Below the pieces are notes generated by a model. That model saw nothing but the letters and a program-made list of their open reading frames with translations. It was not told where the DNA came from and made no database searches. From an uncultured Chromatiales bacterium (lineage in GTDB: Bacteria > Pseudomonadota > Gammaproteobacteria > Steroidobacterales > GCA-2729495): DNA of 34,337 nucleotides. Positions 5,454 to 24,811 of this stretch are shown piece after piece. Position 1 is the first letter of the stretch. Every line of letters starts with the position of its first letter. The position numbers and the translations under genes were made by a program. The stretch spans positions 1 through 34,337 of the forward strand of contig CBDTTT010000001.1 of assembly GCA_965363345.1 (NCBI GenBank), in the 5' to 3' direction.

Positions 5454-5507
5454 TATATTCAGATTTATCGTATAGCAATTGTGTTTATAAATTGAGTGAG
5501 GCTAAGC

Positions 5508-6473
5508 ATGTCGGATAAAAAATCAGCTGAAGGTATGTCAATCGACCGCCGTCGTTTGTTGGCGGGAATCGGTGCAGCAGGTGCCATGAGTATGGCGCCA
5601 TCAGTGCAGGCAGAGCCCTGCTCTAAAGCTGTCGAATGGACGCTTGATCTTGACGAGGCAAAAGATAACTTACGCGCATTGCTGAAATTGCAGGCTGATC
5701 TTTCCGGCGCAGATGCCCTTTCCGGTTTTCCCGGTAAGGTATGGGGCTGGGTGCCTGGTAAAGGTAATACTCTGCTATTCAATACCTACGGGATTGGCTG
5801 CAGTCATATCGAAGAGGTTGAAAACGGCTATCGTTTTTATCATCGTGAGTTGCTTTATTACACCGACCCTAAAACCAATGAAGTGCTCGACACCTGGAAT
5901 AATCCTTACACAGGCAAGACTGTTGATGTGCGTCATATCCTGAATGATCCCGTCAATCGTTTTTATCCTTTTGCAGGTGGTCGGTTTGCACCACCGTTCG
6001 CGTATGAGGTTCATGGTAACGACATCGTTTTTCAGATTAGCGTGTTCCGATTTAACGAATCTCCTATGAGTCGTGCTGAGTACCCCCTGCATTCGGCTGA
6101 CGATAACTATCAGTCGGCAGAACTATGGGGAATGATTGGTCGTATTGAAGAAGTTATGGACCCGGATGTTACATCAGCGAGTTGCGTCACTTCCTGGTCC
6201 CGACTTTCGCAGTGGTTGCCGTTTATGGAAATGGGTAATGCACCGGGTAACATGGTATTCCACAGTCATTCATATAAGTTGATGGGTGGAGCTGCTGAAC
6301 TCCCACCACAAATTCTTGCGTATACCGAGAAGAACTATCCGAAGTATCTCGAGTCACCTAAAGAGTGGTTGGGGATGAAGGAAAACAAGAGTCAGGTCAC
6401 CGAAAGCAAGAAAGAAATCGATCGCCGCTGGGCACAGGATGGTCCGGCAGGGTCAGTGTTTGAGGTGAAGTAG
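5508..6473 (+). CDS. Tat-signal exported protein of unknown function, probably DUF1838 family. Paralogue of 23978-24811.
   Basis: SD GAGG lies 7 nt upstream of the ATG at 5508. It has a twin-arginine signal (SIDRRRLLAGIGAAGAMSMAPSVQA). With the second copy it shares L+AL+KL, YYTDxxTxExLDxWxNPY(T/S)GKxVD and TSAxxxxSW. Confidence 0.6.
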   Translation: MSDKKSAEGMSIDRRRLLAGIGAAGAMSMAPSVQAEPCSKAVEWTLDLDEAKDNLRALLKLQADLSGADALSGFPGKVWGWVPGKGNTLLFNTYGIGCSHIEEVENGYRFYHRELLYYTDPKTNEVLDTWNNPYTGKTVDVRHILNDPVNRFYPFAGGRFAPPFAYEVHGNDIVFQISVFRFNESPMSRAEYPLHSADDNYQSAELWGMIGRIEEVMDPDVTSASCVTSWSRLSQWLPFMEMGNAPGNMVFHSHSYKLMGGAAELPPQILAYTEKNYPKYLESPKEWLGMKENKSQVTESKKEIDRRWAQDGPAGSVFEVK

Positions 6474-6489
6474 ATTCGCAGCTTCGTTT

Positions 6490-6533
6490 CAGGCAATAAA
6501 AAACCCGACTTTTGTCGGGTTTTTTATTGCCTG
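6490..6533. terminator. Bidirectional rho-independent terminator between convergent genes.
   Basis: It is a perfect 20-bp inverted repeat, CAGGCAATAAAAAACCCGAC / GTCGGGTTTTTTATTGCCTG, with a TTTT loop. The GC core CCCGAC/GTCGGG is flanked by an A-tract on one side and a T-tract on the other. Confidence 0.85.
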
Positions 6534-6578
6534 AATTTGTACGATCTAATTTATCGGGACTACAGCTGTAACGCTTGT

Positions 6579-7667
6579 TTAGTTCGCAGCTGCTTGGCTC
6601 ATTAACTGTCGGGCTTCATTTGCCCAATTTGCCCGATGTGCCTTCTTCGTGCGGGCTGCAATGTTTTTAAGCTCGGCTTCCCCTAATTCTGCCAGCTGTG
6701 CGTAGTTGAATACGCCCGCATCATTTAGGCGACGCTCTAGGCCGGGACCGATACCGCGAATTTTCTTAAGGTCATTCTTTGCAACCTGCATATCGGTGTG
6801 GGTTTCCTCGAGCTGGTCTGAGTTCTGATTGTCGCTATGTAGCTGTGGTGCGACATGGTCACTCGCAGTTTCGGTGAGAGCCAGATGTCTCGAAGTGGCC
6901 TCTGCCGCAATTCGTTCCTGCTTTACAACCCGCGCCTTCTTAATAGCATCCGAGAGTCTGTTTAGTTTGGCTTCAGTCTGTTGTTGTTCGTTGCGAAGTG
7001 CTCTAATCTGATGCTTGAGCCTATCGATGACTTCCCCTTGCTGGGTGTTTTCTGTGGCGAGAGGCTTAGCCCATTCTTGCAGTGCCTGAAGTTGTTTTTT
7101 CATGCTGGCTTCAGCGGCTCTACTGCTGTGCAGTTGGTCACGCAGGTCTGCCATAGACCCTTCTGTCGCCATGCTTGGTACCGGCGCGGATGGGTTTTTC
7201 TTGGCCGACAAGAATTCAAGCTCGCTGCGAAGTTCTGCTATTTGTTTTTCATAGCCGACAATGTCTTTTAGAACTTTTTGGCGGACTTTATCTTTTTCGA
7301 GATGGGTTTGCTGCAGCGTGTTGATCATTCGCTTCTGGCTGCCATGCTCAACCCGAATCCGATCACGATCTTCCTGTAGGTGGGCGAGTTGTTGAACCTG
7401 TTCGTTGATACGGTCTTCGTAGCGGCTATTTTTTGCGGCAACCTCTGCCTTGTCGTGATGCAGTTGTTGAACTGTAGTTTGAAGTTCCGATATTTCCAGC
7501 GGCAATTCGGGAGTGTCAGTAGTTGACTCTTCAGCTGCCTTATCAGCATCGTTGTTGCCGGTCGCCGTTGTTGTTTGAGTTAGCACTGCTTTGCAGACAA
7601 CCCAGCCCAGCAGAAAGGCTATGCCGCCGGCTATTAGTGCTGTAATTAGTGTGGCTGCAATTGTCAT
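6579..7667 (-). CDS. Membrane-anchored long coiled-coil protein with a C-terminal helix-hairpin-helix-like motif.
   Basis: From the ATG at 7667 the product begins MTIAATLITALIAGGIAFLLGWVV (one TM). About 280 aa follow that are rich in Q/E/K/R/L with heptad-like character. The C-terminus is DLKKIRGIGPGLERRLNDAGVFNYAQLAEL. Confidence 0.6.
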   Translation of the reverse strand: MTIAATLITALIAGGIAFLLGWVVCKAVLTQTTTATGNNDADKAAEESTTDTPELPLEISELQTTVQQLHHDKAEVAAKNSRYEDRINEQVQQLAHLQEDRDRIRVEHGSQKRMINTLQQTHLEKDKVRQKVLKDIVGYEKQIAELRSELEFLSAKKNPSAPVPSMATEGSMADLRDQLHSSRAAEASMKKQLQALQEWAKPLATENTQQGEVIDRLKHQIRALRNEQQQTEAKLNRLSDAIKKARVVKQERIAAEATSRHLALTETASDHVAPQLHSDNQNSDQLEETHTDMQVAKNDLKKIRGIGPGLERRLNDAGVFNYAQLAELGEAELKNIAARTKKAHRANWANEARQLMSQAAAN

Positions 7668-9166: not shown

Positions 9167-10054
9167 TTAGTTTTGTTTTGGTATTGGCTCTAGTTGGCGT
9201 ATGTATTCGATTATCGCGCTGCGATCGCCTTCAGACAACAAGGCCGTATTCTCATCAACGACTGTACTCATTTCTCCGCCGGCAAAATCTCCGTTAGGTA
9301 GCATCCCAATTTCGAGAAAGAGACTTAGGTCATTACGCCGCCACGACTTTAGACCGTCTTCATGAGGTGTAAGGTTGGGCGCGGCTTTAGCGTCGCCGAA
9401 GCCCGGTGCACCTGCAAGCTCGAGTTCACTGTTTAACCCGCCAAGCTCGTTTCGAGGTGTGTGACATTCGCCACAATGACCCAGGTGTCTGACGAGATAG
9501 GCACCCCGATTCCATTGTTCATCTTTACTTGGCTCAGGCTGGAAGCGGGCGTCCGAAAAATACAGCCACTTCCAGAACATCACTGGCATGCGCCAAGATG
9601 CGTACCAGACCAGTTCGTGGTCTTTGTTCGGAGTGCCAAGTGCTGGCAATGAATCAAGATAGGCTTTGATATCGAGTAGATCAGTATCGCTCAGACCGGT
9701 ATAAGCCGGGTAGGGGAATGCAGGATAGTAGTGCTCTCCATCGGGGTTAATGCCCTGTTGGAAAGCGGCTAAAAATTCCTTATCTGACCAGTCGCCAATG
9801 CCGTGCTTCGGGTTGGAGGTAATGTTCGGGCTATAGAACGTACCAAAAGGGGAGACTAGCGGGCGGCCTCCGCCAAAATCCGGGCCTTTGTCGGCCGTAT
9901 GGCAGGCAATACAGCCGCCAGCATTTGTGAGGTATTGGCCGCGCTCCGCGTTTGCCGCAGAAGCTTCGGTGTTGAATAGAACAATAAGCAGGCCCGCGCA
10001 CAGTGGCAAAATAATGAGCCACTGTGCAACGGAAAATAGCTGTTTAGTGTTCAT
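9167..10054 (-). CDS. Dihaem c-type cytochrome (COG2010-like, related to the cytochrome subunits of membrane dehydrogenases).
   Basis: It has two CxxCH motifs (CIACH, CGECH). From the ATG at 10054 the product begins MNTKQLFSVAQWLIILPLCAGLLIVLF...ASA (signal or anchor). GIGDWSDKEF...YPAFPYPAY is typical of this family. The start overlaps the cytochrome c' stop by 11 nt. Confidence 0.85.
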   Translation of the reverse strand: MNTKQLFSVAQWLIILPLCAGLLIVLFNTEASAANAERGQYLTNAGGCIACHTADKGPDFGGGRPLVSPFGTFYSPNITSNPKHGIGDWSDKEFLAAFQQGINPDGEHYYPAFPYPAYTGLSDTDLLDIKAYLDSLPALGTPNKDHELVWYASWRMPVMFWKWLYFSDARFQPEPSKDEQWNRGAYLVRHLGHCGECHTPRNELGGLNSELELAGAPGFGDAKAAPNLTPHEDGLKSWRRNDLSLFLEIGMLPNGDFAGGEMSTVVDENTALLSEGDRSAIIEYIRQLEPIPKQN

Positions 10055-10505
10055 GTTCCGCACGGAAGTCGTCGTGACATGTTTTGCACGATTTGCCGAC
10101 TGCCTTGAATGCGGCACCCATGGCGGCGCGATCATTTGCTTCGGCTGCTGCTGCCAATTTTGCCGTGGCATCCTTCACATCATTGGCATATTCCTGATAG
10201 GTGTCCATCTCTTCCCAGATGGCAGGTAAAGCATCGCCACCTTCAGAGCCTGCGTGCACGAGATCAGCTACGAGAGAGGCAGAGGCTGCCAGAGCCTTAC
10301 TATTGGCAATAATATGTGCCTCAGATGCTTGCAGATCAACCTTGCCTAAAAAGACGCTAATAAATCCTCCGAAACTTGAGCTCATCGTGTTCATGACCTG
10401 AGACCGATACTTTGCGGCATCGCTGAGTTCATCATCAGCCATAAGGCCTTGTGCGGACAATAGCAGTGCTGTTGCAACGAGTGTGGCAAGTAGTTTGTGA
10501 TTCAT
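10044..10505 (-). CDS. Class II cytochrome c (cytochrome c' / c-556 family).
   Basis: It has a signal peptide (ALLLSAQGLMA-DD), four-helix-bundle-like composition and a single C-terminal haem motif, CKTCHDDFR. Confidence 0.85.
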   Translation of the reverse strand: MNHKLLATLVATALLLSAQGLMADDELSDAAKYRSQVMNTMSSSFGGFISVFLGKVDLQASEAHIIANSKALAASASLVADLVHAGSEGGDALPAIWEEMDTYQEYANDVKDATAKLAAAAEANDRAAMGAAFKAVGKSCKTCHDDFRAEHEH

Positions 10506-10520
10506 GATTGGTTCCCGTTA

Positions 10521-11525
10521 TTAATTCAAAATTTCGTTTTTACTAATAGATTCTAAGGTATCGTGTTTTTGATCGGGCAGATCAAGTGTGCCGTCTAGGA
10601 AAGCTCTTACATCAACTCCTGTAATATCGCCTGCTTCCTGAACAGCCATGTGCCCAACGCCCGGATAGATTTTCAGTTGCACCGATTCAGCGCCACTGAG
10701 TAGCTCGATAAACTCGGGTGCTTGCTCAACTTTTGCTTGTGGGTTTGCTTCACCCCAGAGGATGAGTACGGGGGCTCTGACCGCGGCGACAACGCTTTCC
10801 AGGTCGCCGGCTTCGTATTGCCGCAGGCGGTCGAGCTCTGCTGCGCGCTGACCTTCACGCATCCACATGTCGTACCAGCGGTCTACGAGTTCTTCAGGTA
10901 ACTCCGTGGTTTCTCCCCAGGCGGAAGACAGCATGAATTCTGGGATAAAGCGGGGCAAAATATAGGCAAGTATTTGAGATGACTTTCCTGGCCTGCCGCG
11001 TTGCTTCATCATTTCTTTGCCTTCGAGCGAGCCGGGGCTGAGTAATATCAACTTGTCGACACGTTCGGGGTGGCGGCTGGCGTAGTGCAATGCAACGGTA
11101 CCGCCTAGTGAAGTGCCGCCTATGGAAAGCGTTTCAAGGCCGAGTGCATCAATAAAGCGTTCGGCAAGTTCAACGGTGCGTTCCACCGTGTAGTCGCCTG
11201 TCGGATCCGGACCTGTTAGGCCATGACTGGTCATATCAAAACGAATAACGCGATAGTCGTCTTTTAACGCATCGACCCAGGGTTCCCAGCCTAGCAAGCT
11301 GGCAAAGTGAGCATGCACCAGCACAATGGCCGGACCTTCGCCTTCATCACGGTAGTGCACTCTGACACCGTCGATGTTCATAAAGCGTGAAGCGTCATTT
11401 GCGTATTTTTCTTCCAGCACTTCAGCGGGAATATCGCGGTACGCCCAAAGGGCAACGGCCAGCGCGATCAGCGATAGGGCCAGCAGTGTTCCCAGCGTGT
11501 ATCCAATGTAGCGTAATACTTTCAT
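10521..11525 (-). CDS. Alpha/beta-fold hydrolase with an N-terminal transmembrane anchor.
   Basis: SD AGGGGA is present. The TM segment is YTLGTLLALSLIALAVALWAY. The nucleophile elbow is GGTSLGG and a C-terminal GVGHM histidine motif is present. Confidence 0.75.
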   Translation of the reverse strand: MKVLRYIGYTLGTLLALSLIALAVALWAYRDIPAEVLEEKYANDASRFMNIDGVRVHYRDEGEGPAIVLVHAHFASLLGWEPWVDALKDDYRVIRFDMTSHGLTGPDPTGDYTVERTVELAERFIDALGLETLSIGGTSLGGTVALHYASRHPERVDKLILLSPGSLEGKEMMKQRGRPGKSSQILAYILPRFIPEFMLSSAWGETTELPEELVDRWYDMWMREGQRAAELDRLRQYEAGDLESVVAAVRAPVLILWGEANPQAKVEQAPEFIELLSGAESVQLKIYPGVGHMAVQEAGDITGVDVRAFLDGTLDLPDQKHDTLESISKNEILN

Positions 11526-11696
11526 TCGGTTCCCCTATTGTCTATTAACTGATAATACGTCAGCAGAGTCCTTACTCGTAAGTCCCGGAGCTGATATGCC
11601 GCTGTGCGGTGGCTCTGACTGGCTGTTGATGGTAGGTTGGCAAAAATGGCTAGTGGGTCGATATTAGCTGCTATAGGAAATTTCTCTGGAGTTGCT

Positions 11697-12833
11697 ATGT
11701 TTCTTGCGTTGCGTGATCTGGCTTTTGCTAAAGGCCGCTTTTTCCTGATGAGCATGATTATTGCTCTGGTGGCTTTTCTTATGACATTGCTCAGTGGCCT
11801 GTCGTCGGGCCTCATTAAGAACAATATCTCGGGCTTGATGGCGATTGATGCGAATTATATCGCCTTCGAATACAACGATCGTCCGAATTACCGCAACAGC
11901 CTGGTCGAGCGTGAAATGTGGGAAGGTTGGCGTGAGTCTCCGGGAGTTCTTGCTGCTGAGCCTTTGGGCCATACGATGTTTACGGCCCGAACGCCCGATG
12001 ATGTGCCACTGGATGATGTTGTGCTGTGGGGCATCGAGTCCGGCAGTTTTCTGGAACCGACAGTGGTCTCTGGCGAACAGCTGGGCGGCTCGGAAGACGG
12101 GGTCATTATTACCGCGATTCTGGCCGAGAAGCATGGCGTCGGTTTGGGCGATGTTGTGGTGCTCGATCGTGTGCTTACGCGACTTACCGTCGTTGGCATA
12201 GCTGAGGAATACAATATTGGTCATGTGCCTGTCATCTATACCCCGATGAGGAAATGGCAGGAGGCCACATACGGTCCCCCGGGTGGGCCGCCTCCCGGCG
12301 AAGAGTTGCCGGGCATTTTGTTTGATTACTCCAGCGTCATTGCTTTGCGACTTGAACCCTCCGCGAATATAGAAGAGTTGGATATTGAGTGGGGCACGGT
12401 CTCACTGAATAAGCAGATCGCCTACGAGGCATCCTCCGGCTACAAGGAGGAAGTTCAGACGGTGCAGATGATTCAGGCGTTTATGGTGATTATTTCGGCG
12501 CTGGTTATTGGTGCGTTCTTTACTATCTGGACGATCCAGCGAACCCAGGAAATCGGTTTAGTAAAAGCGCTTGGTGGCTCAAGTGGTTATCTGCTGCGAG
12601 ACACTATGGCGCAGGCTATGATTGTGACTCTGTTCGCTGTTGGTGCGGGTACTTTGGGTGCAGTCTGGCTAGGTTTCTCGCTGGAGGCCTCGGGCAGGTC
12701 GTTCATGATGGTGCGAGATGACATACTCGGTTCTTCGGGACTATTGATTATTGCAGGTTTGGTTGGGAGCATGGTGTCAGTGCGACTTATTACCCGTATT
12801 GATCCGATCATTGCGCTGGGTCGCACACGTTAG
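11697..12833 (+). CDS. MacB/FtsX-type (type VII) ABC transporter permease, HrtB-like layout.
   Basis: SD GGAG lies 6 nt upstream of the ATG at 11697. The N-terminus MFLALRDLAFAKGRFFLMSMIIALVAFLMTLLSGLSSGL is TM1. A ~230-aa extracytoplasmic domain follows, then three C-terminal TMs, and the protein ends ...RIDPIIALGRTR. Confidence 0.8.
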   Translation: MFLALRDLAFAKGRFFLMSMIIALVAFLMTLLSGLSSGLIKNNISGLMAIDANYIAFEYNDRPNYRNSLVEREMWEGWRESPGVLAAEPLGHTMFTARTPDDVPLDDVVLWGIESGSFLEPTVVSGEQLGGSEDGVIITAILAEKHGVGLGDVVVLDRVLTRLTVVGIAEEYNIGHVPVIYTPMRKWQEATYGPPGGPPPGEELPGILFDYSSVIALRLEPSANIEELDIEWGTVSLNKQIAYEASSGYKEEVQTVQMIQAFMVIISALVIGAFFTIWTIQRTQEIGLVKALGGSSGYLLRDTMAQAMIVTLFAVGAGTLGAVWLGFSLEASGRSFMMVRDDILGSSGLLIIAGLVGSMVSVRLITRIDPIIALGRTR

Positions 12834-12842
12834 GGAGTCGTA

Positions 12843-13535
12843 ATGAGTTTGCAGGTAAATGATGTAGTGCTTGAATTGGGCGATGGTGATCAGAAAATTA
12901 CCGCGCTTGACCATGTTAGTTTTTCTGTCGATGACGGTGAGTTGCTCGGCGTGCTGGGTCCGTCTGGTGCTGGTAAATCGAGCCTTTTAGCCGTGTGCGG
13001 TGGGTTGCGTCACCCAACCAGTGGCTCGGTGCTGATTGGTGGTAAGGATTTGACCGCACTGAAGGATAGTGAGCTGACAAAGTTGCGGCTGGAGTCGGTT
13101 GGTTTTGTGTTTCAACAATCGAACCTTGTCTCTTCGTTAACTGCCTTGGATCAATTGACACTGATGGTGCACTTAAGTGGTAAAAGACCGGGCAAGGCAG
13201 ACCGGGAGCGGGCATTGGCGTTGCTCAAATCCGTCGACATGGAGCATCGTGCCGACCGTCGCCCTGATCAATTATCGGGTGGTGAGCGTCAGCGCATCGG
13301 TATTGCCAGGGCACTGATGACATCCCCTTCACTATTGTTGGTTGATGAGCCGACCTCCATGCTAGATCAGGTTCGCGGGCGACAGATCGTCGACTTGCTT
13401 CGTGAGCAATGCTTTGAGCGAGGTGTTGCTGCCGTTATGGTGACTCATGATCGTTCAATGCTTGAGGCGGCTGATCGCAGCCTGCATATTGTGGATGGTC
13501 GTTTGCAGGATGACTCCGACTACGCCGATCACTAA
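12843..13535 (+). CDS. ABC transporter ATP-binding protein (MacB/LolD/HrtA family).
   Basis: It has Walker A GPSGAGKSS, signature LSGGERQRIGIARAL, Walker B LLLVDEPTSMLD and the H-loop VTHD. SD GGGAG is present and the gene starts 9 nt after the permease stop. Confidence 0.9.
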   Translation: MSLQVNDVVLELGDGDQKITALDHVSFSVDDGELLGVLGPSGAGKSSLLAVCGGLRHPTSGSVLIGGKDLTALKDSELTKLRLESVGFVFQQSNLVSSLTALDQLTLMVHLSGKRPGKADRERALALLKSVDMEHRADRRPDQLSGGERQRIGIARALMTSPSLLLVDEPTSMLDQVRGRQIVDLLREQCFERGVAAVMVTHDRSMLEAADRSLHIVDGRLQDDSDYADH

Positions 13536-13604
13536 AACTTATTGTTTCTGTCGTTGTCTCTTTTGGCATTGGTACAGAATAAACATTCAGCTGAGGACAG
13601 CACC

Positions 13605-14708
13605 ATGAGGAAACTCGCTCCCGCCTTTCTATTGCCCGCTATTGCGGCTTTTCCTTTGTTGTTTTTTGCAGCGGCAGGCCTGGCTGAAAGTCATCACGAC
13701 ATGCACGATATGCATGACATGCACGCTGGTGCTCCGGAAATGGGTGCCGATGGCAAGCGCGATCCCGGAGATATGGATCATACGATGACGCCGGAACAAC
13801 TTACGGCGCTGCGCGAGAAGATAGCGCTGTATCGCGCACTCACAGACCGTGAGGCCCAACTCAACATGGCGATGATGCGGCCCAACTACGAGTGGTATGT
13901 CAGCGACTCCGCTGTAACTAATGATGTCGGTGTATTAGTTCTCGCGCATGGCGTTGGTGACAATAGCGATCGATTATTCCGTGATAGTTTGCGGCCAATG
14001 GCTGAGGATAGGCCGACCGCGATTTCTTTCGGCATGGCGATGATGATGTCGTCGCATATTCAGTCGAGTGTCGATGATCTTGAGGCTGCCGGAGCCAAAA
14101 CCATTGTTCTGGTGCCAACTGCGACGACCGAGTACAACTCGCTGAATCGGCAATGGGAATATGCTTTTGGCATGCGTGAGGATTCCTCCTATCTTGATGT
14201 TCCGAAAGTTAATACCAGTGCCAAGGTACTCATGGCTTCGAGCTTTAATGATCACCCGCTGATCAGTGAAGCTCTGATTGAGTATGTGCAGGAGAAGAGT
14301 GTCGACCCGGAAAATGAGACGGTCATCTTTGTGGGGCATGGTCCCGAAGAGATCGATGACAACGTGCTCGATTTAGAAGTGCAGCAGGCCCATGTTGACC
14401 GGATGCTGGAGCAGGGTGGTTTTGCCGAGGTTAAGATGATTAACCTGCAGGACGATGCTTATCCGCCGATTCGAGCAGCAAATGTTAAGAAGCTGCGGCG
14501 TTGGGTAACCACTGCCCAGCGCAAAGGCAATACAGTGATTGTTGCCGTCGTAACATCAGCAAGTTTTGGCGTGCAGCAGAAGATTGTCGAAGACTTGCGC
14601 GGTCTTGATTATAAATTTGCTGATAGGGGGCTTATTGAGCACCCCAATTATCAGAAGTGGATTCTCGCCGCTGTTGATGAGCGTCTGGCGGAAGAGCAAG
14701 CCCTCTGA
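13605..14708 (+). CDS. Exported two-lobed protein with a class II chelatase (CbiX/CbiK)-like layout and a His/Met-rich N-terminus, copy 1.
   Basis: SD GAGGA lies upstream of the ATG at 13605. A signal peptide ends AAGLA-ES. The mature N-terminus is SHHDMHDMHDMH...DMDHTM. The two lobes start VLVLAHGVG and VIFVGHGPEE. It also has TTEYNSL (compare the CbiK GxEY motif) and DHPLI. The fold assignment is motif-based and tentative. Confidence 0.5.
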   Translation: MRKLAPAFLLPAIAAFPLLFFAAAGLAESHHDMHDMHDMHAGAPEMGADGKRDPGDMDHTMTPEQLTALREKIALYRALTDREAQLNMAMMRPNYEWYVSDSAVTNDVGVLVLAHGVGDNSDRLFRDSLRPMAEDRPTAISFGMAMMMSSHIQSSVDDLEAAGAKTIVLVPTATTEYNSLNRQWEYAFGMREDSSYLDVPKVNTSAKVLMASSFNDHPLISEALIEYVQEKSVDPENETVIFVGHGPEEIDDNVLDLEVQQAHVDRMLEQGGFAEVKMINLQDDAYPPIRAANVKKLRRWVTTAQRKGNTVIVAVVTSASFGVQQKIVEDLRGLDYKFADRGLIEHPNYQKWILAAVDERLAEEQAL

Positions 14709-14714
14709 TCCTGG

Positions 14715-15287
14715 TTAGCGGGTAAAGCGACCTTTCACCGCAATGACAACTGCGGTTAGCATAATCAGCAATGTCGATGCCTGTGCAAGATAGGTTGTCG
14801 CCAGCTTGATTTGTTTCGCGATGACGGCAGCATCAGCCGCGCTATTAAGTTCGTTCGGGAACGCCACTATTACGGTCAGCAAGCTTATATTCTCCAGCCA
14901 GTCGAATAGCGTTGGGATCAGCAGCAAGACAAACAAATTCTTTTGTAAGGCGATCTCGTACCAGCGAGGGAGACTATGCCGCAGCACGTAGGGCCAGATT
15001 GTCGCTAGAAACAAACCTGCGAACAATGGGAAAAAATAGTCGATTGCTGTGAATACGTAGTAGAGGTCGTATGCCTTGTCACTATAGCCAGCAAGCTGCG
15101 AAAAGATTTCATCGGTCGTGAGTGAATTCTGTAGATCAAACGGCAGAGCACCTGCTGCATGAGGCTGAAACTTTTCCCCTATATAAAGTAGTGTCCGCAG
15201 GCTGCCTGCGAAGCCTACAAACAACAGTACGAATCCCCCGAGCGAAAATGAACATCGAACAATGAATTGATTCAGCAGCTCTAGCAT
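14715..15287 (-). CDS. Integral membrane protein of unknown function (about 4-5 TM), located between the two chelatase-like paralogues.
   Basis: It is a 190-aa ORF with hydrophobic segments (GGFVLLFVGFAG, YFFPLFAGLFLATIW, LFVLLLIPTLF, ASTLLIMLTAVVIAV). I recognise no family. Confidence 0.55.
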   Translation of the reverse strand: MLELLNQFIVRCSFSLGGFVLLFVGFAGSLRTLLYIGEKFQPHAAGALPFDLQNSLTTDEIFSQLAGYSDKAYDLYYVFTAIDYFFPLFAGLFLATIWPYVLRHSLPRWYEIALQKNLFVLLLIPTLFDWLENISLLTVIVAFPNELNSAADAAVIAKQIKLATTYLAQASTLLIMLTAVVIAVKGRFTR

Positions 15288-15498
15288 GTGTGGACCTTTT
15301 CAAAGTAGCTTTGTAATTTTTGTTATAACCTTATCGTCCCGCATCTCCGTGAGCAGTTCAAGCGAGAGATGATGCGCTGTCTTCACTACATTGGGTTATG
15401 CAAATACTTGTCTGCTGCAGTAATGACAGGCATCCTGAGTCGGGATGGCATCGTTAAGGTGCGCGCTCGGTATATTAGGTCAAATGATGGTGAATGTG

Positions 15499-16605
15499 AT
15501 GAAGTCGGTGAATGTCAGAGGAGCCCAATGTATAGGGCGGTGGTGTTTACGACTTGCGCCTGTCATATGCGCGCTATTTTTCGTTTCTGTGAGTGCTGAA
15601 GAGACTAGCCATCAGCATGATGCTCATCACATGAGCAATACCGATATGGATGAGCAGGGCCGACGCCTCTATGGCGAGCGACATCAGGTAACTGATGCAG
15701 CGGCAGATGAGTTGCGTGGCCGTATCGATCAGTTTGCCGGAGCTGATACGGCAATGATTCAGACGGTGATGGACCGAATGGATTCTAACTACGAATGGTA
15801 TGTCAGTGATCTCCAATTGCGTGGTGGTACTGGCGTCATGATTCTTGCTCATGGGTTCCGTGCTTCCGGAGACAATATTTTTCGACAGCGCCTTGAGCCT
15901 CTGGCTGATCAGAACCCTACTGCACTCGCACTTGGCATGAGCATGATGATGTCAGACCACATTCAGCTAGCTGTCGATGACCTCGAGGCGGCTGGTGCAG
16001 AGCGCATAGTAGTAGTGCCGGTGGTGAGCAACAGCTCGAATAGCTTAATGCGGCAATGGCAATACATTTTTGGTATTAGCGACGAGCCGGCATACACGGC
16101 AGTGCCGCGGGTTAGTGCTGATGCCGAACTGTTATTTGCGAAGCCACCCGGCGACCATCCGCTGATTCAGGAAGTTCTTGTCGATTATGCTAAAGAGATA
16201 AGTCAGGAACCAAAGAAGGAGTTTTTGCTTCTCGTGGCACACGGTCCTGAATCAGAGGCTGACAATCAAATAGCCCTAGCTATGCTGAATGGCATGTTAG
16301 GCGAAGTTCAGCATGAAATCGGTTTTGCAGGTGCTGGTGTCGCCTCGCTTCAGGACGACGCGCCTACAGCTGTGCGGACCGCAAATATTGCAGCAATGCG
16401 TGCAATGGTGGAGCAGGCCCAGGCAGATGGTTACAAGGTTCTGGTGATAACCAACCTGTTAGGCGCAAGAACGGCGCAGGCAGAGCTACGCAGGAGCCTT
16501 AGAGGCCTGAGTTATACATTTAATGCGAAAGGCATTGTGCAGCACGATAACTTTATTCGCTGGATCGAAGCCTCTGTCGCTGAGGCGACTGCACCTGAGT
16601 CCTGA
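15499..16605 (+). CDS. Exported class II chelatase-like protein with a His-rich N-terminus, copy 2 (paralogue of 13605-14708).
   Basis: It shares NYEWYVSD, ILAHG, GMSMMMSDHIQ, VDDLEAAGA, QWQYIFG, DHPLI, AHGPE and LQDDA with copy 1. The signal peptide ends FFVSVSA-EE and the mature N-terminus is ETSHQHDAHHMSNTDMD. The start is uncertain and could be 15484, 15487 or 15499. Confidence 0.5.
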   Translation: MKSVNVRGAQCIGRWCLRLAPVICALFFVSVSAEETSHQHDAHHMSNTDMDEQGRRLYGERHQVTDAAADELRGRIDQFAGADTAMIQTVMDRMDSNYEWYVSDLQLRGGTGVMILAHGFRASGDNIFRQRLEPLADQNPTALALGMSMMMSDHIQLAVDDLEAAGAERIVVVPVVSNSSNSLMRQWQYIFGISDEPAYTAVPRVSADAELLFAKPPGDHPLIQEVLVDYAKEISQEPKKEFLLLVAHGPESEADNQIALAMLNGMLGEVQHEIGFAGAGVASLQDDAPTAVRTANIAAMRAMVEQAQADGYKVLVITNLLGARTAQAELRRSLRGLSYTFNAKGIVQHDNFIRWIEASVAEATAPES

Positions 16606-16609
16606 GTCT

Positions 16610-17254
16610 CTAGTTGATCTCAGGTGACTCTGTATCTTCGCTATCCAACTGCTGTTGCTCAATGGCAGCGGTAATCTCTTTTGCGATTTCGGCTAGAAGA
16701 TTACTGAGTGCCTCAGCGTGGTCTGAATAGCTGCTGGATGATGCTTGCTGTGTAGTTGTTGAGCGTGTTACGTAGTAAACGGTCTTGACGTTCACGTCTG
16801 ACAAAGCCCACTGCATGCTTAGTGTGGCTAGTTGGTCTGCATCCACATCGAATCGAGTTACTGTCCCAATTACACGTAAAGTGGTTATTTCGCTGGCCTC
16901 GTTTCCAATCCCAAATTCGTGTACCCAGTCGCTGCCGAGTTCTTTCGAAATATTGACTGTTAGTACTCTCGTAAATCCCCGCTCCAGCGGTTCGATCCAA
17001 CGATCGTACTCAGCTACGTTCATCTGATTGTCTTTCCCGCGGGTTACCATTTGCGGGCGATTCAGGTACCTGGGCATGTAGATAGGCCCTACCCTTAACG
17101 ATACATCTCTTGTTGGCGATACAGTGCTATCAATCACTGTTTCCTGAAGCGTGTAGTAACGGCTTGCCGGTGAGGAGCTGCAGGCCCCTAGTAGTGTTGT
17201 AACAATGACCACTAAAAGAATCGTTGTTGACGTTTTAACAGATTGTGAATACAT
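16610..17254 (-). CDS. PqiC/YmbA-like (DUF330) ABC-transport auxiliary lipoprotein.
   Basis: It has a lipobox followed by the family hallmark (LLGAC-SSSPASRYYTL). It lies immediately downstream of the MCE gene. The ATG at 17254 has SD AGGTGA, and the GTG at 17266 is an alternative start. Confidence 0.75.
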   Translation of the reverse strand: MYSQSVKTSTTILLVVIVTTLLGACSSSPASRYYTLQETVIDSTVSPTRDVSLRVGPIYMPRYLNRPQMVTRGKDNQMNVAEYDRWIEPLERGFTRVLTVNISKELGSDWVHEFGIGNEASEITTLRVIGTVTRFDVDADQLATLSMQWALSDVNVKTVYYVTRSTTTQQASSSSYSDHAEALSNLLAEIAKEITAAIEQQQLDSEDTESPEIN

Positions 17255-17266
17255 ATCGGGTGTCAC

Positions 17267-18247
17267 CTATTTCTTACCGCGAACCAGCGCTTCGGGGTGT
17301 TGTTCGAGGTAGTCTGCCAGCACCCTGATTGAACGGGCAGCATCAGATACTTCTTCAAGCGTTTGAGAAAGCTGCACAGATAACACCGACTCCCCATCCA
17401 GCTGACTGCGTGCGGCAAATAAGAATGCTTCGGCCTGTTCCAGCGTGCCTGCGAGGTTGGTGATGGCAGGTCCAACATTTTCATCAAGGTCATCGATAAG
17501 CACCTGCGCGCTATTGATGGCGGCAGTCAGGTCTTTGACGGCCTTGCTCATATCTTGAGGAAGGGCCTGAGTACCTTGATCATTGATAAGCGTGTCGATG
17601 CCGGCAAATGCGCTGCGTAACTCCGCTGAGTTGGCGAGCTGGTCAACACCATCGAGAATGCTGGTAACTTTCTTGCTAAGTTCTTTTACATCAAGTCCCT
17701 GTTGGAGCTCAGAGAAGAATCGCTGCGCGTCTTCAATTGCTTGCGTGATACCCGAGGTCACAGTGGGGATTTCCGGATAGGGAACCGTCTTGTTTTGAAA
17801 TACCGCCTCAGTATCGGGCTGAAAATCGAGTTCAATCATAAGCTGGCCAGTCACAAAGCTTTCTGAATCGAGCTGGGCACGAAGGCCTGCATTGATCCAC
17901 TCATCAATACTGAACCTGTTAACGGCCTTGGCGCGGGATACTTCTTCATTGCCCTGAATGAAGCTGAACTGTTCGGGGTCTATTTCGTAGACAACAGGTA
18001 TGAGGGTGTCTAGATTATCGAGCGATGCTATTAGCTTAATGTCTGTGACATAACCGACCCGCACACCACGAAACAGCACGTTTGACCCAACCCTTAGGCC
18101 TTTTACCGAGCCGCTGAAGTAACTGACGAATTGAGATTTATCTTTGAATATCTCGCTGCCGCCAAAGAGCATTGCCGATATGGCGAACAAGGCGATGGCC
18201 CCTATTACAAAGCTGCCAATGAGAGCTGGATTTGATTGTTTACTCAT
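17267..18247 (-). CDS. MCE-domain (MlaD/PqiB-like) substrate-binding protein with a long helical C-terminal extension.
   Basis: It has an N-terminal TM (ALIGSFVIGAIALFAISAMLF), an MCE core (FSGSVKGLRVGSNVLFRGVRVGYVTDI) and an Ala/Leu/Gln-rich helical tail of ~150 aa. Confidence 0.8.
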   Translation of the reverse strand: MSKQSNPALIGSFVIGAIALFAISAMLFGGSEIFKDKSQFVSYFSGSVKGLRVGSNVLFRGVRVGYVTDIKLIASLDNLDTLIPVVYEIDPEQFSFIQGNEEVSRAKAVNRFSIDEWINAGLRAQLDSESFVTGQLMIELDFQPDTEAVFQNKTVPYPEIPTVTSGITQAIEDAQRFFSELQQGLDVKELSKKVTSILDGVDQLANSAELRSAFAGIDTLINDQGTQALPQDMSKAVKDLTAAINSAQVLIDDLDENVGPAITNLAGTLEQAEAFLFAARSQLDGESVLSVQLSQTLEEVSDAARSIRVLADYLEQHPEALVRGKK

Positions 18248-18259
18248 ACAAACAGTTTC

Positions 18260-19069
18260 CTATGGTGCCTGGTCATTTTTAGATGCGTCATTGGCGGTAT
18301 CTTTCTCTGGGGCAGCTTTGCCCCGTAGCAGGAAGTTTCTCACATCAAATATGGGTGAGGAATCCCTGAGTGCTGTGGGATTGCCTGTGGCTAGCTGCGT
18401 GCGTGTTACGGGGTCCAGAAATACTGAGTTGTTGCCAATATCAAAAATACTGGAAAGCTCATGTGTGACAACTACCACGGTTGTTTTCAGGCTATCACGA
18501 ATTTCAAGAATGAGATCGTCGAGTAGTTTGGCGCTGATCGGATCGAGGCCGGCAGAGGGCTCATCAAAAAACAAAATTTCCGGATCCATTGCCATGGCAC
18601 GCGCGAGTCCTGCACGCTTTTTCATACCGCCGGAAATTTCACTCGGATAGTAATCGTCGAACCCGGCAAGACCTACCAGCGATAATTTGTAGGCACAGAT
18701 TTCACTAATTTCGCGTTCACTGAGGCTAGTGTACTGTTTTAATGGCAGGGCAATATTCTCGGCAAGCGTCATTGAACTCCACAGCGCACCGCTCTGGAAC
18801 AGAGTGCCGAACTTTTGCTTCATGCCGAGTTGGGTCTCTGCGTCAGCGCTCCAGAAGTCACTGCCATCGTAGCTAACGGAGCCGGTGTCGGGTTGTTTAA
18901 GGCCGATCAGGCACTTGAGCAGCGTGCTCTTACCACAGCCGCTGCCGCCCATGATGATGAATACGTCACCGTGATTGACGGTGAAGTTGAGGTTCTGCTG
19001 AATAACGAAGTCACCGTAAGCCATGGTCATATTGCTGACGGTAATGTGAGGACGGGCGGCATCAGTCAT
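18260..19069 (-). CDS. MlaF-like ABC transporter ATP-binding protein.
   Basis: It has Walker A GGSGCGKST, signature ISGGMKKRAGLARAM, Walker B ILFFDEPSAGLDP and VTHE. Confidence 0.9.
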   Translation of the reverse strand: MTDAARPHITVSNMTMAYGDFVIQQNLNFTVNHGDVFIIMGGSGCGKSTLLKCLIGLKQPDTGSVSYDGSDFWSADAETQLGMKQKFGTLFQSGALWSSMTLAENIALPLKQYTSLSEREISEICAYKLSLVGLAGFDDYYPSEISGGMKKRAGLARAMAMDPEILFFDEPSAGLDPISAKLLDDLILEIRDSLKTTVVVVTHELSSIFDIGNNSVFLDPVTRTQLATGNPTALRDSSPIFDVRNFLLRGKAAPEKDTANDASKNDQAP

Positions 19070-19071
19070 CG

Positions 19072-20199
19072 TTATATCCCCACATTAATGTAAATGACGG
19101 TGAGTATGGCAGCACTGACAACGATCATGACAATACCCATTACGACAGCTTTGGTTGTTGCCTGGCCTACCGCCATGGCGTTGTTGCCACAGTTCAAACC
19201 CTGCATGCAGCCCGCAAGAGCGACGAGGCTGCCATAGACTATAGATTTGAATAGTCCGCCAAATAATGTGCTCAGATCTACCGCTGCTTGGGTCTGCACC
19301 AAATATTGAATGGCGCTGATATCGAGCATAGCGACACCGACAGCAAGCCCGCCGAGTATGCCCATTAGGCTGCTGTACATAGTGAGCAGCGGCATCATGA
19401 TGATGAGGGCAATAACCCGTGGCAGTGCCAGAAAGTCGATGGGGTCTATGCCCAAGGTTGTCAGGGCATCAATCTCTTCATTTACTTTCATCGTGCCGAT
19501 TTGTGCTGCATAAGCTGCACCGGTGCGACCCGCCATGATTATGGCCGTCATAATAGGTGCCATTTCGCGAACCATGGCGACGGCAACCAGGTCGGCGGTG
19601 TAAATGCCGGCGCCAAAGCTAGTCAGTTGCATCACGCCAACGAAAGCAAAAATCATGCCGATCAAAAAGCTGATTAGGCTAACGATAGGAAATGCCTCGG
19701 CCCCGGCCTCCTGAATAATGACCACGAGATCCGATTTCAGATAATTGGCCTTGCCTTTGAAGAACCGGCCTATAGACAGGGCTAGTTGTCCGACGAATTC
19801 ATTGATCTCTTTAAGTGATTCCCAGAGTTCGATACTGGCATTGCCGACATCTGTCGCAAGGCTTGTTTCAATAGTTTTTTTGCGCGCGCCCTCACGTTCT
19901 TCAACAGCGAACGCAAGGCGGAGTAGGCTAGCCGCCCCTTCAGGCAGGCCGTCAAGATTGACGTCTATGTTATGCCGGATGCAGTGGGTGTAAATACTGA
20001 CGAGAGCGGTTAGCAGTCCTGTATCCCAGCCCTCAAGAGCCTCGCAGTTAAAGCTAAGCTGCGTCGAGCTTTCAGGTATTGCAGCGACAATGTCATCAAC
20101 ACGTGGTCGGCCAGCATCCATGAGCCATTCCCCTGAAAACAGGACAATAGGATTGCTTTCATTTGAGCAATCAATAGCTACTTTTGCTGCTGCTTTCAT
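19072..20199 (-). CDS. MlaE-family ABC permease with an N-terminal STAS-like (MlaB-like) extension.
   Basis: The C-terminal ~260 aa match the MlaE pattern (FPIVSLISFLIGMIFAFVGVMQL...AMVREMAPIMTAIIMAGRTGAAYAAQIGTMKVNEEIDAL...). The first ~110 aa are soluble, with a STAS-like layout (VLFSGEW...LSFNCEALEGWDTGLLTAL). Confidence 0.8.
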   Translation of the reverse strand: MKAAAKVAIDCSNESNPIVLFSGEWLMDAGRPRVDDIVAAIPESSTQLSFNCEALEGWDTGLLTALVSIYTHCIRHNIDVNLDGLPEGAASLLRLAFAVEEREGARKKTIETSLATDVGNASIELWESLKEINEFVGQLALSIGRFFKGKANYLKSDLVVIIQEAGAEAFPIVSLISFLIGMIFAFVGVMQLTSFGAGIYTADLVAVAMVREMAPIMTAIIMAGRTGAAYAAQIGTMKVNEEIDALTTLGIDPIDFLALPRVIALIIMMPLLTMYSSLMGILGGLAVGVAMLDISAIQYLVQTQAAVDLSTLFGGLFKSIVYGSLVALAGCMQGLNCGNNAMAVGQATTKAVVMGIVMIVVSAAILTVIYINVGI

Positions 20200-23977: not shown

Positions 23978-24811
23978 ATGCAACTTTCACGGAGAAGTTT
24001 TACAGGTCTTATGGGTGCGGCGGCGGGCAGCTTTATGGTGCCTAGCTATGCTGAACCAGTCTTAACCGCGCCTGATGATATTTTGCATGCGCTGATAAAG
24101 CTCCGTGGCACGCTCGATGACAGGCTCGTGATGTGGTGGATGAAGGGCATGCGTTATGGGGTTGTTGATGACCGCATTACTCCCTTATATGGAATGAAGA
24201 CCGGAGGATTTCAGCTGTATAAGGAGTTGGCTGATGGCCGTCACTCTATGACGATGCTGGAGTTGGTGTTTTTTACCGACCTGGAAACGGAGCAACCATT
24301 GGATCAGTTTACCAACCCGTATAGCGGCAAAGTAGTGGATATACCGGAGCAACGACTGGGTCCTTATACGGTTTACCACACGACTCAAGGCGTTGAGATA
24401 CCGCGTAACCCGGCTTTCGGCACGTTTGAATTACGGACAGGGCTAGGACCTGTCGTTGTGCAGGGCGACGATGTCTGGATCAGAGACGATAGTTTTGTCG
24501 ATGTTGATTCTGATCAGCCGATGATGGGCAAGCATACCTACAATGAGTTTGTTACTTATCGAGGTAGTCTCAAAGATATTGAGAACCCCGAACTCACATC
24601 CGCACCCGCTACTGTTGCTTTCCAGAGCGTGACAAGCTGGCGCGAATGGATGGGTGCCGAAGGTGTTGGCGGACATACAACCGCGCGGGCTGCCGGGAGA
24701 AAGTGCTTCTCATTGGATGAGTTTCCGGATGACTACCTGCAGATACTTAACGACCGTTATCCTGAAATAGCCAAAGACCCTCGCGCTGCATTACTCCCAA
24801 AACCAGCTTAG
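23978..24811 (+). CDS. Tat-signal exported protein, probably DUF1838 family. Paralogue of 5508-6473.
   Basis: SD GGAG is present. The Tat motif is SRRSFTGLMGAAAGSFMVPSYA. The core FFTDLETEQPLDQFTNPYSGKVVDI is shared with the other copy. It starts 14 nt after the SDR stop. Confidence 0.6.
   Translation: MQLSRRSFTGLMGAAAGSFMVPSYAEPVLTAPDDILHALIKLRGTLDDRLVMWWMKGMRYGVVDDRITPLYGMKTGGFQLYKELADGRHSMTMLELVFFTDLETEQPLDQFTNPYSGKVVDIPEQRLGPYTVYHTTQGVEIPRNPAFGTFELRTGLGPVVVQGDDVWIRDDSFVDVDSDQPMMGKHTYNEFVTYRGSLKDIENPELTSAPATVAFQSVTSWREWMGAEGVGGHTTARAAGRKCFSLDEFPDDYLQILNDRYPEIAKDPRAALLPKPA

Follow-up and report, generated by a model that had tools for sequence, protein, structure and literature searches.

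An HrtBA-like Pump and Exported Chelatase-Fold Proteins in Uncultured Marine Proteobacteria: A Candidate Haem-Handling Module

The Locus and Its Genes

The subject of this study is a gene cluster in a 34,337-nucleotide (nt) stretch of DNA from an uncultured Chromatiales bacterium (contig CBDTTT010000001.1, positions 1 to 34,337), hereafter called the window. The cluster opens on the plus strand with the gene for an HrtB-like ATP-binding cassette (ABC) permease of type VII (11697..12833; 378 residues; Pfam FtsX, E 4.9e-10), whose ATG at 11697 is preceded by a GGAG ribosome-binding site. The gene for an HrtA-like ABC ATPase follows after 9 nt (12843..13535, plus strand; 230 residues; Pfam ABC_tran, E 2.5e-34). 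Next, across a 69-nt spacer (13536..13604, plus strand), comes the gene for ChlA (13605..14708, plus strand), a 367-residue protein to which AlphaFold2 and Foldseek assign a class II chelatase fold and which appears to be exported. ChlA begins with a signal peptide, after which come a disordered tail rich in His and Met, a helical N-terminal extension that is conserved, and a pair of CbiX-like lobes. ChlB, an exported paralogue of ChlA, is encoded further on in the same direction by an open reading frame (ORF) spanning 15445..16605; since its orthologues are about 356 residues long, the start is probably the ATG at 15499 (MKSVNV...). Between the two paralogues, on the minus strand, lies the gene for Mem190 (14715..15287), a 190-residue protein of no known family that AlphaFold2 predicts to be a helical membrane protein.

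A preliminary description of this DNA, made by reading the sequence alone, had proposed this layout: a permease with four transmembrane helices, its ATPase 9 nt on, a 367-residue protein with a Sec signal peptide 69 nt later with no hairpin between, and a small polytopic membrane protein on the minus strand between two paralogues. The ORF table has each gene at the position proposed, Pfam agrees on the FtsX and ABC_tran assignments, the signal peptide is recognizable by eye, and the model of Mem190 has about four helices. In the spacer, a GAGGA ribosome-binding site stands 7 nt before the ATG of chlA at 13605, and a search for a terminator-like hairpin between 13535 and 13605 found none. The short gap, the ribosome-binding site and the lack of a terminator there are sequence signals of co-transcription of the ATPase gene and chlA.

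The Pump

The permease has four transmembrane helices, with an extracytoplasmic domain between the first and the second. Compared with all PDB sequences, it matches HrtB of Corynebacterium diphtheriae (7w78_B) from end to end, residues 1–377 aligning with residues 1–343 at 34% identity (E 7.5e-39), whereas FtsX, YtrF and MacB score E 0.048–0.66 in the same search. By sequence, the permease is specifically HrtB-like, and other type VII permeases are more distant from it than HrtB is, which sharpens the earlier naming of the pair as HrtBA-like. The ATPase matches HrtA (7w7a_A, E 3e-50) in the PDB search, and its translation contains a Walker A motif (GPSGAGKS), a signature motif (LSGGERQR) and a Walker B motif (LLLVDEPT).

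The haem site of HrtBA has been described as follows. Glu219 is the axial ligand, His163 of the extracytoplasmic domain stacks on the porphyrin, and the lower half of the site is lined by L35, L39, L223 and P301 (PMC9271180). We aligned 48 HrtB orthologues from related loci with C. diphtheriae HrtB, the sequence of the latter being rebuilt from the PDB-search alignment. Both Glu219 and His163 are present in 48/48. L39 is kept in 46 and L35 in 37 of the 48; the position of L223 is occupied by Val in 47; P301 is Pro in 39 and Ser in the window. In architecture, sequence relatedness and haem-site residues, the pump belongs with HrtBA.

The proteobacterial HrtBs have a feature of their own. Right after H163, all 48 orthologues carry a conserved insertion of 20–25 residues (KWQEATYGPPGG..PGE.LP...FD) that C. 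diphtheriae HrtB lacks. In the window the insertion corresponds to positions 12200–12290, about residues 170–200 of the permease, within the extracytoplasmic domain. We suggest this clade-specific insertion as a candidate docking surface for a periplasmic partner.

Export and Fold of ChlA and ChlB

ChlA and ChlB are 40% identical over 356 residues (E 3e-80), so that the paralogy proposed earlier stands, with an identity somewhat below the estimate of roughly 45% made by eye. They share the motifs DHPLI, LQDDA, NYEWYVSD and QWxYxFG, and both lobes of each protein begin with a strand and then HG, all as previously noticed. Both N-termini are basic, continue with a hydrophobic segment up to an AxA-like site, and then enter a His-rich stretch; that of ChlA (MRK-LAPAFLLPAIAAFPLLFFAAAGLA/ES) reads by eye as a Sec signal peptide. 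Across the 97 family members collected, the N-termini are hydrophobic, with AxA-type or L-A-G-C sites, again by eye, and the mature domains contain no Cys. Several ChlB orthologues have lipoprotein signal peptides, namely those at 11020 in locus L009, 8810 in L010, 7468 in L011 and 11683 in L015, and those of L002/L075. These have L-A-G-C or L-S-G-C, with no Asp at position +2, and are without the His-rich tail, unlike ChlB of the window, which carries an ordinary signal peptide. The lipobox sequences hint that in these relatives a soluble ChlA is paired with a membrane-tethered ChlB.

The likeness of the paralogues to class II chelatases, as claimed in the preliminary description, holds for the fold but not for the thresholds of the sequence families. 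Neither ChlA nor ChlB has a Pfam match at E <= 0.01, to CbiX, CbiK, Ferrochelatase or any other model. In NCBIfam the matches are weak and of the CfbA/CbiX type; ChlB matches CfbA over the whole model, on its N-lobe, at E 1.2e-6 and 28.5 bits against a cut-off of 120, and sub-threshold Pfam CbiX matches occur in 29 of 36 family members, the best at E 1.7e-5. No significant chelatase match came from PDB searches by sequence and by profile, whether started from ChlA, ChlB or the family profile, and the link to the chelatase fold therefore rests on structure prediction. An AlphaFold2 model of ChlA was obtained from a 36-sequence alignment, with a predicted local distance difference test score (pLDDT) of 87.6 and a predicted template modelling score (pTM) of 0.83. 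It displays a signal helix, a disordered segment at residues 26–45, a helical extension at 63–89, and two lobes, each with the pattern β-α-β-α-β-α-β-α. In a Foldseek search of the PDB, the top match of the model is SirB, with a template modelling (TM) score of 0.68–0.74 on the target (0.70–0.73 for 5zt7). The periplasmic CbiK(P) (2xvz) is matched with a TM score of 0.63 and E 6e-6, and further matches are DR2241, CbiK, HemH and CpfC. The model superposes on SirB, CbiK(P), DR2241, CbiK and HemH with a Foldseek probability of 1.00 in each case; sugar-binding proteins rank after the chelatases, with much lower TM scores. The model thus confidently predicts that ChlA has a class II chelatase fold, with two Rossmann-like α/β lobes and a cleft between them.

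The Altered Cleft

In class II chelatases the three residues of the metal site, His, Glu and His, come after strands 1, 2 and 3 respectively, and the His pair is strictly conserved, being His9/His75 in CfbA, His10/His76 in SirB and His145/His207 in CbiK (PMC8179277). We assigned the equivalent positions in ChlA from the secondary structure of the model together with a HMMER alignment to CbiX-S, and not from coordinates. In the N-lobe they are H115, M144-M146-M147 (in GMAMMMS) and N178; in the C-lobe, H245, Q282-D283-D284 (in QDDA) and Q324. Conservation in 91–97 of the 97 members is found for H59, M88, M91, Y98, H115, M144, M146 and M147, and likewise for H245, Q282, D283, D284 and Q324, while N178 is invariant in the 36-sequence alignment (A1). 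The first canonical His is kept in both lobes, as H115 and H245 (96–97/97). Where chelatases have their Glu, the N-lobe has Met and the C-lobe has Asp-Asp. Judged from the alignments, the cleft positions are under strong constraint, and the canonical His pair is half present. Because only half of the two-His metal site is kept, catalytic chelatase activity is not implied, and since both the His pair and the Pfam thresholds fail, we call ChlA and ChlB chelatase-fold proteins rather than chelatases. The residue types His, Met and Tyr are typical axial ligands of haem.

The same cleft can be read in a different way, with ChlA and ChlB as active periplasmic chelatases or dechelatases. They would strip the iron from haem that the pump delivers or is to receive, as a form of salvage in an iron-poor ocean, or insert another metal; the tail would shuttle the metal ion, and HrtBA would supply the substrate or clear a lipophilic product from the membrane. 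The ferrochelatase HemH works with a single His and a carboxylate, and the active-site positions of the family are invariant (H115 with M144, M146, M147 and N178; H245 with D283-D284 and Q324). The tail is rich in His, as detailed below, and class II chelatases are known to have His-rich accessory regions, CfbA being one example (PMC8179277). An exported CbiK-like protein, FetB, catalyses the insertion of metal, making Mn-protoporphyrin IX (PMC13065792). The objections to enzymatic activity come from the proteins and from the pump. SirB, CbiX, CbiK and CfbA all have a second, strictly conserved His, where the N-lobe here has Asn/Ser and the C-lobe Gln; the window proteins fall below the Pfam CbiX, CbiK and Ferrochelatase thresholds, and the Glu ligand of HrtB implies that the substrate is a metallated and not a metal-free porphyrin (PMC9271180). 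We consider active (de)chelatases possible but doubtful.

The His/Met-Rich Tail

The tail, about 34 residues preceding the invariant H59, contains 13.7% His (2.6% for the remainder of the protein), and in the ChlA model it has a pLDDT below 50. In gammaproteobacterial members it carries HxHHxH-type runs, and some of them have MDHEG-type repeats. Tandem (MDHSQ)n repeats, up to seven copies, occur in 18 of the 97 members; the carriers are mostly alphaproteobacterial paralogues that stand alone, without the pump, together with two stand-alone gammaproteobacterial ones. In Rhodospirillaceae members (L046–L064; e.g., L053, 7854–8954, and L051; also L045, 5488–6399), 2–7 MDHSQ repeats directly follow the signal peptide. 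The repeats resemble His/Met motifs that bind Cu/Ag in the periplasm, namely the copper-binding DHSQMQGM repeats of Pseudomonas syringae CopA/CopB and the HxxM/MxH motifs of SilE and PcoE. A literature search on the MDHSQ-type repeat found nothing.

The repeats raise the question of whether ChlA and ChlB bind metal ions and no tetrapyrrole, as periplasmic metallochaperones for Cu(I)/Cu(II), perhaps Ni or Zn. The module would then serve against metal stress, with the pump acting on a metal complex or on an unrelated substrate. Such a role would agree with the 18 repeat-bearing proteins, with the invariant Met clusters MNMAxM and GMAMMMS, and with a Met at the position of the metal-binding Glu42. 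It is hard to reconcile with the pump, in which the haem-specific Glu and His are invariant; moreover, copper-resistance genes (CopA, CusCBA, multicopper oxidase) are absent from the window and from the related loci inspected, and the literature gave no support for the repeat. We regard a purely metal-binding role as unlikely.

Conservation of the Module

Related loci were collected in a scan of one genome per species (GTDB), which yielded 72 loci; an exact-protein look-up added four more contigs. The window proteins were mapped onto these loci, and 44 non-redundant loci were found to have a close ChlA orthologue. All of the 72 loci are from uncultured metagenome-assembled genomes (MAGs) labelled Gammaproteobacteria/"Chromatiales" or Alphaproteobacteria/Rhodospirillaceae. 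In 44/44 loci ChlA follows a close HrtA homologue, no more than 1.2 kb downstream of it, and HrtB is adjacent in 43, running off the contig in the remaining one. No locus whose ChlA reaches 49% identity is without the module. The other components are less constant. Mem190 is found downstream of ChlA in 29/44 loci and a second chelatase-like paralogue in 15/44. The check on conservation of the neighbourhood that the preliminary description had proposed, like its other computational checks, supported its reading. In some relatives a gene of 312–316 residues follows chlA; it was considered as a cryptic ChlB and rejected, being unrelated and without a Pfam match. The alphaproteobacterial modules have the order ChlA'-(two small genes)-HrtB-HrtA-ChlA-TetR.

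In a ChlA homologue search, 475 relatives were retrieved, which are unnamed, "hypothetical" or, by their IMG names, "sirohydrochlorin cobalto-/ferrochelatase". Those names (sirohydrochlorin cobaltochelatase/ferrochelatase, as given by JGI) would suit an ordinary cytoplasmic CbiX/SirB-type enzyme that stands beside an unrelated ABC transporter by chance. Such an enzyme would not be expected to have the N-terminal signal peptides or lipoboxes that are seen, by eye, in all members, nor an incomplete catalytic His pair. Chance would hardly keep the synteny in 44/44 loci across two proteobacterial classes, and no sirohaem or cobalamin genes are nearby. We find a cytoplasmic sirohydrochlorin chelatase scarcely credible here.

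Beyond the 44 loci, 28 more distant paralogues (38–47% identity) stand alone, with no adjacent HrtBA; in four cases the same genome also has a full module. The gene contexts of two stand-alone paralogues, those at L053 and L060, were uninformative. Near the stand-alone paralogue of about ten Rhodospirillaceae loci (L046, L051–L054, L057, L059, L061–L063) there is a YbbAP-like type VII ABC system, with an 880-residue duplicated FtsX/MacB_PCD permease and an ATPase (e.g., L053, 1796–5121), 1–3.5 kb upstream of the paralogue and on the opposite strand. This neighbourhood may be no more than inherited synteny.

When 1.84 billion cluster representatives were searched with a profile, 940 relatives came out at E <= 1e-3, and 157 at E <= 1e-30. 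Those further removed are exported CbiX-like proteins, 290–320 residues long, that pass the Pfam CbiX threshold and are without the N-terminal extension; motifs of this wider family are LAHGG, FGMGM, SSHS, HGP..DN, RDDAP and GGIE, and its function is apparently unstudied. Three Omnitrophica-type contigs from groundwater and sediment (L078–L080; gene at 6001–6927 etc.) have the gene between those for GTP cyclohydrolase I and ThiC, with no pump. The idea that association with a pump is a general trait of exported CbiX-like proteins was rejected on the strength of these three loci, and because the wider family is without the pump there, the pairing appears specific to the proteobacterial subfamily.

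Regulation

In 32/44 loci a gene of the TetR family separates HrtA from ChlA; in two, both alphaproteobacterial, it comes after ChlA, and the remaining 10 are without it. The same is true of the window, its TetR gene being cleanly absent and the 69-nt gap left in its place (compare TetR of L004, 9342–9965). In the TetR-bearing relatives, a palindrome, TTGACAc.gTGTCGA, covers the -35 box upstream of hrtB. In the window (region 11600–11696) the palindrome has decayed, and a promoter-like TTGGCA-17-GATATT remains. This sigma-70-like sequence, at 11637–11665, is part of a divergent promoter region (11526..11696). Because both TetR and its operator have been lost, expression in the window strain is probably constitutive.

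In Firmicutes, haem efflux genes are under the control of TetR-family repressors, namely HrtR, FhtR and HatR (PMC11442138, PMC12670364). The TetR proteins of the relatives gave generic TetR matches when compared with the PDB, and HrtR was not among the matches listed. In their ligand domain H108, H132 and M71 are conserved, which is merely suggestive of haem sensing.

A Proposed Role: Haem Extraction with a Periplasmic Partner

HrtBA does not move haem across the membrane; haem is taken from the outer leaflet and released on ATP binding, and release by the C. diphtheriae pump in vitro needed an acceptor protein, HasA (PMC9271180). In general, type VII ABC transporters act with a periplasmic partner that defines their function, such as LolA, EnvC, MacA or TesA (PMC12646458). 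Since the synteny with the pump is invariant, the simplest reading is that ChlA is the pump's periplasmic partner. A periplasmic acceptor would be needed in a diderm because released haem would otherwise re-partition into the membranes.

We propose that the module is a diderm version of HrtBA haem extraction with dedicated periplasmic partners, an explanation that we hold to have about an even chance of being correct. From the homology, the ligand residues, the fold, the export signals and the synteny we infer the hand-over, the identity of the ligand and the action of ChlA on it, as follows. The HrtB-like pump would extract haem or another metalloporphyrin from the inner membrane, using the conserved Glu as axial ligand and the conserved His for stacking. 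Binding of ATP by HrtA would squeeze the site and eject the ligand. The inter-lobe cleft of ChlA would then receive the ligand, which would thus be kept from falling back into the membrane, and the invariant His, Met and Tyr residues of the cleft could act as axial ligands for the metalloporphyrin. ChlB, a lipoprotein in some relatives, may also take part. ChlA may merely sequester or chaperone the ligand, pass it on, or remove or exchange its metal. In most relatives the TetR repressor encoded between the pump and ChlA would make the operon ligand-inducible.

Several observations weigh against this proposal. At the position of the second chelatase His, the N-lobe has N178/S179 and the C-lobe Q324. 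The existence of 28 stand-alone paralogues means that the chelatase-like fold also functions apart from the pump. The His/Met-rich tail and the Met clusters look, in sequence, more like sites for Cu(I) or another metal ion than like a plain haem pocket. No outer-membrane exit component is visible, and a need for haem detoxification is not obvious in free-living marine bacteria. All of the support is computational, and every family member comes from an uncultured MAG.

It is tempting to go further and to view the module as the first Gram-negative HrtBA that works as an ATP-driven machine for extraction and processing, in which the partner removes or swaps the central metal. The pump would dock, perhaps by way of the extracytoplasmic insertion specific to its clade, with what would be a new branch of the chelatase superfamily in the periplasm, and the swap would make use of a Met-rich site, a His/Asp site and the His/Met-rich tail as metal shuttle. 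If true, porphyrin detoxification would be coupled to recovery of Fe/Cu in oligotrophic marine Proteobacteria. We offer this extension tentatively, and think it improbable.

Comparison with Known Systems

The pump of the module resembles Gram-positive HrtBA (C. diphtheriae, 7W78–7W7D; Staphylococcus aureus; Lactococcus lactis) in having a four-helix FtsX-type permease with a separate ATPase, in the 34% full-length identity, and in the conservation of Glu219, His163 and the hydrophobic L35/L39. As in L. lactis hrtRBA, the operon of most relatives includes a gene for a TetR-type regulator. It differs from HrtBA in belonging to diderm Proteobacteria, in the insertion of 20–25 residues, in the Val at the position of L223, and in always being followed by a gene for an exported chelatase-fold protein; the copy in the window is, in addition, without a regulator.

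Among exported proteins, CbiK(P) of Desulfovibrio vulgaris (2xvz) has the same two-lobe class II chelatase fold and is a precedent for haem binding in the periplasm. The sequence identity is only about 14%, and the window proteins differ in their N-terminal extension of about 80 residues, their His/Met-rich tail, their link to an exporter-type pump, and the Met and Asp-Asp/Gln residues of the cleft. CbiK(P) retains a cobalt site of the His/Glu/His kind, and its gene neighbours are transport genes of import type. A second exported CbiK-like protein tied to haem or porphyrin metabolism is FetB/IhtB of Porphyromonas gingivalis, part of a TonB-receptor/ABC-importer locus. In contrast to ChlA, it is a surface lipoprotein of a haem auxotroph of the Bacteroidota, with neither HrtBA nor a His/Met-rich tail. 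For FetB, catalysis of metal insertion outside the cytoplasm has recently been demonstrated (PMC13065792). Thus, CbiK(P) and FetB/IhtB are linked to import systems, while the ChlA family is linked to an exporter-type pump; in the loci inspected, the neighbours in the module are HrtBA, TetR, Mem190 and the α/β hydrolase, and no importer genes were seen. SirB, CbiX and CfbA are the best structural matches and likewise open each lobe with a strand and HG, but they are cytoplasmic, with the strict His pair plus Glu, whereas the window proteins are exported and have an altered site. LolCDE-LolA and YbbAP-TesA follow the same logic of a type VII ABC transporter with a periplasmic partner; here the partner has a chelatase-like fold, the cargo is presumed to be a metalloporphyrin, and the complex is a proposal.

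According to a 2024 review, HrtBA homologues had not been identified in Gram-negative bacteria, and haem efflux pumps of diderms were an open question (PMC11442138). Literature searches found no later report of a Gram-negative HrtBA, in keeping with the statement in the preliminary description that no gammaproteobacterial system of this composition was known. The module is real, conserved, undescribed and built from recognizable parts. It provides concrete candidates for diderm haem efflux pumps, with the HrtB ligand residues intact, across dozens of uncultured marine Gamma- and Alphaproteobacteria. In the co-encoded periplasmic chelatase-fold protein, it would also carry a built-in answer to the question of where expelled haem goes in a diderm. 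Within the class II chelatase superfamily, the locus marks out an exported subfamily that lacks annotation and whose cleft chemistry is altered; the locus also adds a possible new type of partner to the paradigm of type VII ABC pumps and their periplasmic partners.

Mem190, the Divergent Hydrolase, and Other Neighbours

The AlphaFold2 model of Mem190 (pLDDT 95.8) contains long, largely hydrophobic helices at residues 16–43, 70–105, 118–142 and 148–189, which we read as about four membrane-spanning helices. Mem190 has no match in Pfam or NCBIfam and no fold match in the PDB (best E 0.46). Only 71 homologues were found, all hypothetical, all from the same clade and usually adjoining the module. 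Their invariant motifs are PFD(L/M)QN, FPLFAGL, FDWxEN and K..KL.

Across the divergent promoter region from HrtB lies the gene for an α/β hydrolase (10521..11525, minus strand; Pfam Abhydrolase_1, E 8e-26), whose N-terminal hydrophobic segment reads, by eye from the translation, as a membrane anchor. The protein matches PDB 6i8w, the P. aeruginosa phospholipase PlaF, over its full length (E 6.9e-18). A chlorophyllase- or pheophytinase-like identity, as part of a chlorophyll-detoxification module, was considered and dropped, the best matches being generic esterases, meta-cleavage product (MCP) hydrolases and 6i8w.

By analogy, the hydrolase could be a candidate second, TesA-like periplasmic partner of the pump. 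A stronger version of the analogy with YbbAP-TesA makes the membrane-anchored hydrolase the true partner, with a lipid-like ester as substrate and the chelatase-fold genes as passengers. The layout invites the comparison, since the hydrolase is divergent from HrtB in 25/44 loci, much as tesA lies divergent from ybbAP (PMC12646458), and the full-length match to 6i8w is in line with it. The hydrolase is, however, absent from 19/44 loci, whereas ChlA is in all of them; the alphaproteobacterial modules keep two ChlA-type genes and have no such hydrolase; and the haem residues of HrtB are conserved. We judge it very unlikely that the chelatase-fold genes are passengers, and retain haem extraction with ChlA as the partner as the favoured explanation.

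Behind the hydrolase, in the same divergent operon on the minus strand, are genes for a cytochrome c' (10044–10505; Pfam Cytochrom_C_2, E 1.3e-24) and a dihaem cytochrome c (about 9167–10051; Pfam Cytochrom_C, E 4.1e-14). The preliminary description had a c-type cytochrome operon diverging from the same intergenic region as the pump; the gene directly divergent is that of the hydrolase. With cytochrome c' in 12/44 loci, the association of the cytochromes with the module is peripheral and the link weak. The ORF listed for the dihaem cytochrome c (9167–10171, minus strand) overlaps that of cytochrome c' by 128 nt. From the sequence, its true start is probably an internal ATG at about 10051 (MNTKQLF..., leading into a signal-like segment); the overlap would then shrink to 8 nt, typical of translational coupling.

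Two DUF1838 paralogues are encoded in the window, at 5496–6473 and 23978–24811, both on the plus strand. At L060 (9065–10597), DUF1838 genes likewise stand beside a stand-alone chelatase-fold paralogue, and others occur close to the module of L002 and L004. These neighbourhoods may point to a recurrent association, or just to a family that is abundant in these genomes. Finally, an Mla-like lipid-transport operon on the minus strand (16610–20199) converges on the end of chlB, with genes for MlaE (19072–20199), an ATPase (18260–19069), an MlaD-like protein (17267–18247) and an ABC auxiliary lipoprotein (16610–17266); the same converging operon is found in the closest relatives, L004, L007 and L008.

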